Source of the DNA: a virus
Lineage: Duplodnaviria; Heunggongvirae; Uroviricota; Caudoviricetes
Length of the DNA: 64,000 nucleotides
IMG/VR virus record: IMGVR_UViG_2609460332_000008
Reading direction: 5' to 3' (one strand)
Notes under the pieces: model-generated
What the model was told of the DNA's origin: nothing
Databases searched by the model: none
The model's input: only the letters and a program-made list of their open reading frames with translations
Program-made: the position numbers and the translations under genes
Shown: piece after piece, positions 36,837-37,283 of the stretch
Layout: every line of letters starts with the position of its first letter
Position numbering within the stretch: position 1 is the first letter of the stretch

Positions 36837-37283
36837 GTTTTACATGCCTTGACTTATCGGATGAAATTCTCTTACTAAATTTAACGGCAGTTTAATAGCC
36901 GTACAACTCGTGGTAGCCAGGGAAATATCCCAGTCGTGGTTAAGGTTGTACTTGACGGCTATTATTTCAACAATGCTTAAAGTGAGAGCTTAAGGTTATG
37001 CGTATGTTTTACAGTCCGAGTAGATTCTGACCAATAGCTTCTTTGTATAATTCTGTCAGAAATAAATCTTGGCTTGCATGAAGTTTGAGACCTTATCTTG
37101 TTTGATTATGAATAATCAATTCGCCATAATTGTATCACCGGAGCCTGAACAACTCCGGTGACTTCTGCGCTAAACGGGGACGTTTATGCGCACACACAAT
37201 CCAAACTCTCTTCTCCCTTCACAGATGCAGAAATGCACCTGCGTTTTTTTGCATCTAGCGTCTGACCTCTGTGGAGGTGAAGC

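Follow-up and report, generated by a model that had tools for sequence, protein, structure and literature searches.

A lambdoid prophage fragment with an adhesin-esterase cargo island, a nested Mu-like prophage and a candidate nin-operon leader

Background

The closest described counterparts of the nin region analysed here are those of phage 82 and of the prophage DLP12 in Escherichia coli K-12. DLP12 lacks immunity, replication and morphogenesis genes, whereas the lambda-like prophage type of E. coli strain 81009, which is integrated at icd and is common in ST131, carries all three. In the phage 82 record (X92588), the promoter-like element and the hairpin described below also precede the nin genes, and the inverted repeat is annotated there as a 'possible regulator-binding site'. 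They are followed by orf33 and orf151, and the record continues with orf96, rus, orf45 and Q, an order shared with the sequence analysed here. The YbcN protein is a member of the lambda Orf/NinB family (PMC4118853). For inverse autotransporters of E. coli, a survey published in mSphere in 2019 covered intimin, fdeC, yeeJ and iatA-D, and the word 'phage' is absent from its main text (PMC6714894). In the literature searched on these proteins, including that survey, a prophage-borne inverse autotransporter is not described.

We analysed a stretch of 64,000 nucleotides, one strand of the viral record IMGVR_UViG_2609460332_000008 (the window). In the initial annotation, its lambda-like part was read as lacking a left arm, and two explanations were offered: either the arm had been deleted, leaving a cryptic remnant with a junction in 36837..37283, or the esterase and adhesin genes to the left of the nin region were cargo within a larger prophage.

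Results and discussion

The lambdoid prophage and its counterpart in strain 81009

Judged by its match to complete genomes, the window holds the right-hand two-thirds of a lambda-like prophage; prophages of this type are found at icd in ST131 and in other E. coli (Table 1). The ninB-family gene that had been placed at 37284 as the start of the lambda-like part is indeed there, as a GTG-started ORF of 151 aa. It scores 23.7 bits against Pfam NinB, for which the gathering cut-off is 23.8, and an annotation by Pfam alone would therefore overlook ybcN by 0.1 bit. Pfam matches to NinE, YbcO, RusA and Q follow 3' of ninB, and the canonical lambda-type order extends through the tail genes; the Q, lysis, head and tail genes reported earlier are thus corroborated by Pfam (Q) and by collinearity with strain 81009. 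The nin-Q region is of the phage 82/DLP12 type, to which it is approximately 94% identical.

In strain 81009 (ST131; NZ_CP021179.1, approximately 3416334..3464260; locus L001 in Table 1), the genes from the adhesin through the tail are in the same order as in the window, but the adhesin gene is intact and there is no Mu-like prophage, both of which are changed in the window. Two blocks are collinear: L001 18577..19215 corresponds to window 1..639 (100% identical), and L001 19211..44001 corresponds to window 34210..58999 (99.996% identical). The left arm of the 81009 prophage has the order icd, int, xis, exo, bet, gam, kil, S24 repressor (cI), cro-like gene, YdaT, O and P. After P come the gene for a 1421-aa adhesin, an alpha/beta hydrolase gene, a 33-aa ORF, ybcN, ninE, ybcO, rusA, ylcG and Q, and Q is followed by holin, lysozyme, Rz, iss (bor), nohD, terminase and portal genes, onward through J. 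A partial icd pseudogene (icd') marks attR approximately 48 kb from icd, and the 81009 element is a full-length lambdoid prophage with this att duplication. The att repeats that the initial annotation envisaged on either side of the element are represented by icd and icd', which bound the prophage in 81009.

Over 34210..64000, the sole difference between the window and 81009 is a 1-base deletion at 56644 (CAGCCGCTGG to CAGCGCTGG). It lies in tail gene L (56245..56943) and leaves only 142 codons of the ORF for the minor tail protein; either a genuine frameshift or an error of the draft assembly could account for it. The prophage also carries further cargo: iss, a bor homologue, is located after the lysis genes, and in 81009 the sitABCD genes (3418415..3421864) are located just inside attR, past the right end of the window.

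Table 1. Features of the window, with positions counted from its first nucleotide; L001 is the prophage locus of strain 81009.
Feature	Position	Strand	Basis or remark
Adhesin (inverse-autotransporter) gene, upstream piece, entering from beyond the window start	1..639	+	100% identical to L001 18577..19215
Target-site duplication CCAGC, left copy	635..639		L001 blocks overlap by 5 bases, 19211..19215
Mu-like transposable prophage, 33,570 bp, inverted	640..34209	-	TG...CA ends, 5-bp duplication, Mu-type genes
Mu-like right end (TGAAGCGGCGCACGAAAAACGCG...)	640		
mom	755..1450	-	
B	29914..30852	-	
Transposase A	30890..32881	-	
ner-like gene	32883..33110	-	
Repressor	33279..33869	+	
Mu-like left end (...GAATCAATACA)	34209		
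Target-site duplication CCAGC, right copy	34210..34214		Read directly
Adhesin 3' fragment, C-terminal ~515 codons	34210..35756	+	Collinear with L001 19211..20757
GC-rich hairpin, terminator-like on both strands, between convergent adhesin and esterase genes	35768..35788		Pattern scan
Esterase: putative lipoprotein alpha/beta-hydrolase, 347 aa, cargo	35793..36836	-	BD-FAE 5.7e-45, Abhydrolase_3 1.1e-22
Esterase upstream region, right edge of island, 39-43% GC	36837..37100	-	Common only to esterase-carrying prophages/phages
Promoter-like element TTGATT-17-CATAAT	37102..37130	+	Pattern scan; putative -35/-10 in phage 82 X92588
Palindrome TTGAT-N8-ATCAA, holding the -35 half	37102..37119		Conserved
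-10 hexamer CATAAT	37125..37130	+	
HP1 (hairpin of the initial annotation), 9-bp stem, loop CCUGAACAA	37135..37161	+	5 nt after the -10 hexamer
Conserved GACUUCUGCGC	Directly after HP1		
HP2, GCGCUAAACG-GGGA-CGUUUAUGCGC	37167..37191	+	Encloses Shine-Dalgarno-like GGGA and small-ORF AUG (3' arm)
orf33 / ylcH-like leader ORF, 33 codons	37186..37287	+	Annotated in 81009 and phage 82
HP3, inside leader ORF, invariant 24-nt block CACAGATGCAGAAATGCACCTGCG and T-run	37223..37256	+	RNAalifold, fold, scan
Helix pairing with ninB Shine-Dalgarno	Precedes ninB		RNAalifold, with compensatory changes
ybcN (Orf/NinB-family), first nin gene	37284..37739	+	GTG start, 151 aa; RefSeq YbcN in identical DNA
Remaining right arm: ninE, ybcO, rusA, ylcG, Q ... 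J	37739..61772	+	99.996% identity to 81009, annotated there
Q	38685..39374	+	Pfam
Holin/lysozyme/Rz	39696..40922	+	Annotation transferred from 81009
iss/bor	40954..41247	-	Annotation transferred from 81009
Nu1/A terminase	43007..45452	+	Annotation transferred from 81009
Portal, head and tail genes	J at 58290..61772	+	Annotation transferred from 81009

The Mu-like prophage in the adhesin gene

Both genes reported to the left of ninB were borne out by domain matches, the esterase by BD-FAE and the adhesin by Big_1 (5.5e-50) and Invasin_D3 (2.4e-32) in the ORF ending at 35756. What had been overlooked is that this adhesin ORF represents only the 3' end of a longer gene (1421 aa), that the gene resumes at 1..639 of the window, and that a Mu-like prophage separates the two pieces. 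The upstream piece also contains Invasin_D3 and Big_1 domains and is in frame up to a TGA at 640..642, inside the Mu end, so that its translation ends in ...FSQFEAS and the stop. In 81009, the 1421-aa product of the intact gene is annotated as an inverse autotransporter beta domain-containing protein.

The two junctions were read as ...GAAGCCAGC/TGAAGCGGCGCACGAAAAACGCG... at 639/640 and ...GTGAATCAATACA/CCAGCCAAAA... at 34209/34210. The element has what is expected of a Mu-like phage, namely TG...CA ends, a 5-bp duplication, varied insertion sites, and A, B, repressor/ner, Mor and com/mom genes, and Pfam domains of the Mu transposase, MuB, Gam, Mor, GemA and Mom were found on identical DNA. 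Over 33,573 bp, the element shares 99.39% identity with a prophage located between ygbI and ltnD in E. coli KFu019 and, as in the annotation of that prophage, encodes a Mu-type repressor, ner, A, B, Gam, GemA, Mor, head and tail genes, Com and Mom. The KFu019 copy occupies a different, chromosomal site with its own 5-bp duplication, ACCAT, whereas the present copy is inside another prophage. Furthermore, the same Mom protein was found at approximately 10 unrelated chromosomal sites in other assemblies, as would be expected of a transposing phage. With phage Mu itself, the element shares the TG...CA ends, the 5-bp duplication, the repressor/ner/A/B arrangement, gam, mor, the type of head and tail genes, com and mom. 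Its left end matches bases 1..291 of Mu at 84%, and identity is 84-90% in the left end and early region. In contrast to Mu (36.7 kb), the element is 33.6 kb long, and no gin gene is annotated in the 99.4%-identical KFu019 element. The exact Mu/adhesin junction is absent from the complete E. coli genomes in the collection, and when the Mom protein was looked up, 10 other insertion sites came back, but not the present one in the adhesin gene.

The 33.6-kb Mu-like phage has thus transposed into the adhesin gene at codon ~908, creating the 5-bp duplication. A nested Mu-like prophage is a known kind of event, and the main finding is in this respect ordinary. The insertion presumably inactivates the adhesin. 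In addition, since the added 34 kb would exceed the packaging capacity of a lambda-type phage, the lambdoid genome with its insertion (~48 + 34 kb) would be too long to package. A Mu-like phage can thus break the adhesin gene of another prophage and probably also disables that prophage.

The predicted protein fragments were also sought in the protein collection. The 908-aa N-terminal adhesin fragment had no exact match, a result that is uninformative if the number of repeats differs or the gene leaves the contig. For the C-terminal fragment, start variants of 519 aa and 509 aa were not in the collection, while the 501-aa variant matched the source contig.

The prophage adhesin gene is broken in other assemblies as well: it carries IS66 and IS3 insertions in one locus (L018) and is split into two ORFs in two others (L016 and L017). 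In L017, an IS66 is also located between the adhesin and esterase genes. In another locus (L015), the gene calls are fragmented across the whole prophage, which may reflect assembly error. This adhesin gene looks to be frequently inactivated.

The cargo island between P and ninB

In 81009-type prophages, an island of approximately 5.9 kb is located between P and the nin genes. It consists of the adhesin gene, a shared terminator-like hairpin, and the convergent esterase gene with its own upstream DNA. The N-terminal sequence of the esterase ends in ...MSVGSC, which reads as a lipobox. With a query spanning O, P and the 5' end of the adhesin gene, of which at least 80% had to be covered, O, P and the adhesin gene were contiguous in 550 of 5426 complete E. 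coli genomes. The boundaries of the island are sharp. On the left, the match to lambdoid prophages that have no adhesin breaks off at L001 16232, 10 nt ahead of the stop codon of P. On the right, at 37100/37101, prophages and phages without the esterase, such as DLP12 in K-12, phage 82 and many others, match from 37101. For DLP12 and phage 82, the identity from this point is approximately 94% across the leader, orf33/ylcH, ybcN/orf151 and ninE, and neither has the esterase or the adhesin upstream, whereas the window has both. Within the island, at 35788/35789, phages that have the esterase but not the adhesin match from 35789; the adhesin and the esterase are therefore separate modules. The GC content is ~0.40-0.47 across the island compared with 0.49-0.53 in the nin genes, with a step near 37100.

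Seven phage records (4A7, Lambda_4C10, D2, 1W, 3W, Perceval and PhiR47_2) contain an esterase gene that is 99.1-99.4% identical to that in the window. From 35789, across the esterase, its upstream region, the leader, ybcN and ninE, they are 99.1-99.6% identical, and they do not have the adhesin. The records of the first six are ~49-50 kb long, and the esterase is located between the replication genes and ninB. In 4A7, genes for a Ren-like protein, a QacE/EmrE-like protein and a recombinase are located between P and the esterase.

The island has the marks of cargo (a moron), in that it is located between phage modules, is absent from close relatives and has sharp homology boundaries. The island may also have transcription signals and a composition of its own: a terminator-like hairpin is located between the genes, the GC content is lower than in the nin genes and the esterase has the opposite orientation, but a promoter was called for neither gene, and for the esterase the minus strand of 36837..37100 gave no call in a simple pattern scan. 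From these boundaries, the island is best described as two modules, adhesin with terminator and esterase with its upstream region, at a site between P and ninB where cargo recurs, and the putative esterase is by its phage matches a cargo gene already present in sequenced phages. The P-to-ninB gap is recurrently filled, with the adhesin and esterase here and with EmrE-like, recombinase and esterase genes in 4A7.

The missing left arm

An ORF survey of the window agreed with the initial annotation that no int, cI, O or P gene is located to the left of ninB. In sister genomes, however, the int, recombination, immunity and replication modules are contiguous and bounded by att sites, and the contig from which the window comes breaks off within the adhesin gene. 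In other assemblies (loci L015-L018), exo through P are located directly upstream of the adhesin, and with 35000..39000 as megablast query, the arrangement adhesin-esterase-ninB-Q was recovered in 436 complete E. coli genomes. The integrase, immunity and replication genes, the presence of which upstream of the adhesin had been named beforehand as the finding that would contradict a cryptic remnant, are thus located there in the sister genomes.

The source contig accounts for what is missing from view. Positions 24251..45756 of the window correspond to 24253..45758 of contig CBWJ010000074.1 of GCA_000529615.1, with 0 mismatches in 21,506 bases. The start of the window is therefore only 2 nt from the end of the contig, and the left arm cannot be on that contig. 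The adhesin gene contains three tandem 357-bp (119-aa) units encoding Ig domains, which are 97.6-100% identical to each other (L001 17863..18933), and the first 293 nt of the window also match two earlier 357-bp units at 97.6-98%. The contig ends within these tandem repeats, which is a typical break of short-read assembly. The left arm is presumably present on another contig of the same assembly.

We consider it very probable that the window contains the right part of an icd-type lambdoid prophage with adhesin-esterase cargo, the left arm of which is hidden by the Mu insertion and the contig edge. On this reading, the Mu-like insertion and the draft contig break keep the int, immunity and replication genes from sight, and these genes have not been deleted. 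The alternative, a cryptic remnant in which the int-to-P arm was deleted and flanking chromosomal esterase and adhesin genes became joined to ninB within 36837..37283, would fit the lack of int, cI, O and P to the left of ninB in the window and the ~94% identity of the nin-Q region to the defective prophage DLP12, but it is extremely unlikely, since in hundreds of complete genomes, 81009 among them, P is directly followed by the same adhesin-esterase-ninB DNA, phage records of ~49 kb carry the esterase and 36837..37283 unchanged, and the adhesin frame continues at 1..639, on the far side of a Mu insertion bounded by a clean 5-bp duplication. No deletion scar or breakpoint between phage and non-phage DNA was found in 36837..37283; the whole interval is unchanged in phages and complete prophages, and 36837..37100 is carried by the phage records at 99.4-99.6% identity. 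The deletion proposed in the initial annotation was thus not supported, and its other suggestion, cargo in a larger prophage, was upheld by the gene order in 81009, by the 550 genomes and by the phage records. The lambdoid prophage with its hidden left arm is probably defective, through the 34-kb insertion and the change in gene L and not through deletion of the left arm. A seeming truncation of a prophage can thus arise from a nested mobile element together with the edge of a draft contig, and 'odd' neighbours of ninB can be cargo, which calls for caution.

The nin leader

The DNA at 37101..37283 is conserved before ybcN-type nin operons in phage 82, DLP12, HK639, phi80 and CobraSix, whatever is located upstream, and it is also found in phages and prophages of Klebsiella, Enterobacter and Citrobacter. 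Among five phages, TTGAT, ATCAA and CATAAT of the promoter-like element are invariant. The hairpin of the initial annotation (HP1) was confirmed at exactly 37136..37160, or 37135..37161 with one extra pair. A second hairpin (HP2) retains its pairing in four sequence types, as read directly, with the outer pairs recovered by RNAalifold, and is annotated as IR4 in the phi80 record. No match in Rfam at E <= 1 was obtained over 35700..37800 on either strand, and literature searches on ylcH and on sRNAs near ninB gave no description of the leader.

For the comparison of leaders, loci were chosen by an invariant block 75 nt downstream (120 viral contigs), together with loci from an earlier genome scan, because the hairpin itself must not decide which loci are chosen. 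The whole-genome pattern scan also gave chance and coding matches in Oscillospiraceae and other taxa, which were ignored. The 118 distinct leaders contained 49 distinct hairpin segments, all 49 of which fold, with stems of ~8-13 pairs and a YYUGA(A/G)C loop; the mean energy of HP1 was -14.2 kcal/mol, compared with -5.6 with shuffled arms. In the window, the RNA fold of HP1 has an energy of -15.4 kcal/mol (z -3.8) when taken from the plus strand and of -20.3 kcal/mol (z -4.4) when taken from the minus strand, and none of 200 shuffles was as good. Pairs were counted in Python in a loop-anchored ungapped alignment of 40 variants with the same geometry, which was used because MAFFT introduced a gap into the 3' arm and thereby broke the structural register. 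In these 40 variants, standard pairs occupied 95.5% of the cells, and compensatory double changes were found in 9 of 10 pairs. In the controls, column shuffles were 65% paired on average (71% at maximum), and a shifted 3' partner gave 29-51%. There were 56 cells of the G.U type versus 8 of the A.C type, an excess from which it follows that HP1 pairing works only as plus-strand RNA. HP1 is located at a fixed distance of 4-5 nt from the conserved -10 hexamer, and its YYUGAAC loop is conserved.

Downstream of HP1, a complete small ORF was found in 117 of the 118 distinct leaders; its core is conserved, and its length is 29-34 codons in 116 leaders and 58 codons in the remaining one. In the window, the TGA of orf33 overlaps the GTG of ninB as GTGA at 37284, and such an overlap of stop and next start, as ATGA or GTGA, occurs in 114 of the 117, even where the downstream gene differs.

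These features suggest, as a tentative proposal that we hold to be possible though not probable, that the ~185-nt segment 37101..37283 may be an uncharacterised cis-regulatory leader of the nin operon in many lambdoid phages of Enterobacteriaceae. It would combine a palindrome-flanked promoter, HP1, HP2 hiding the start of the ORF and a helix with the ninB Shine-Dalgarno sequence, and translation of ninB and the genes downstream would hinge on that of the leader peptide, perhaps under the control of a factor at the HP1 loop. Transcripts would start at the leader, where the promoter element is putative, or run through it; HP2 would limit initiation on the small ORF; and ribosomes ending the small ORF would open the Shine-Dalgarno helix and reinitiate on ninB. 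In such a scheme the leader would gate ninB translation through translational coupling of the small ORF to ninB, and HP1 may be a 5'-terminal stabiliser or a factor-binding site. The nin leader, with its conservation and covariation, is a modest lead; if the proposal is true, the nin genes would have a further level of regulation, one that is absent from the literature searched.

Two other roles were considered for HP1. It might be an intrinsic terminator, the counterpart of lambda tR2, that stops rightward transcription before the nin genes. Its location between P and ninB resembles that of tR2, its stem is stable, and the G.U pairs point to action as plus-strand RNA. However, HP1 is not a classical intrinsic terminator, because there is no T-run behind the stem, where GACTTCTGCGC comes next, and the terminator scan made no call. 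The constant spacing of 4-5 nt to the conserved -10 hexamer and a YYUGAAC loop that is more conserved than a terminator needs also argue against this role, which we regard as unlikely. It is very unlikely that HP1 is a palindromic operator acting as DNA, to which a phage or host regulator would bind, even though the phage 82 record annotates a 'possible regulator-binding site' and HP1 is just downstream of the promoter-like element: the stem sequence varies freely while pairing is kept, with compensatory changes in 9 of 10 pairs, the G.U excess restricts pairing to plus-strand RNA, and a protein site would conserve sequence and not complementarity. The invariant palindrome TTGAT-N8-ATCAA is a better operator candidate than HP1. 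The UGAACAA loop of HP1 resembles the loops of lambda and P22 boxB. A boxB/nut-like role for HP1 was not adopted, as its stem is much longer and its position is wrong.
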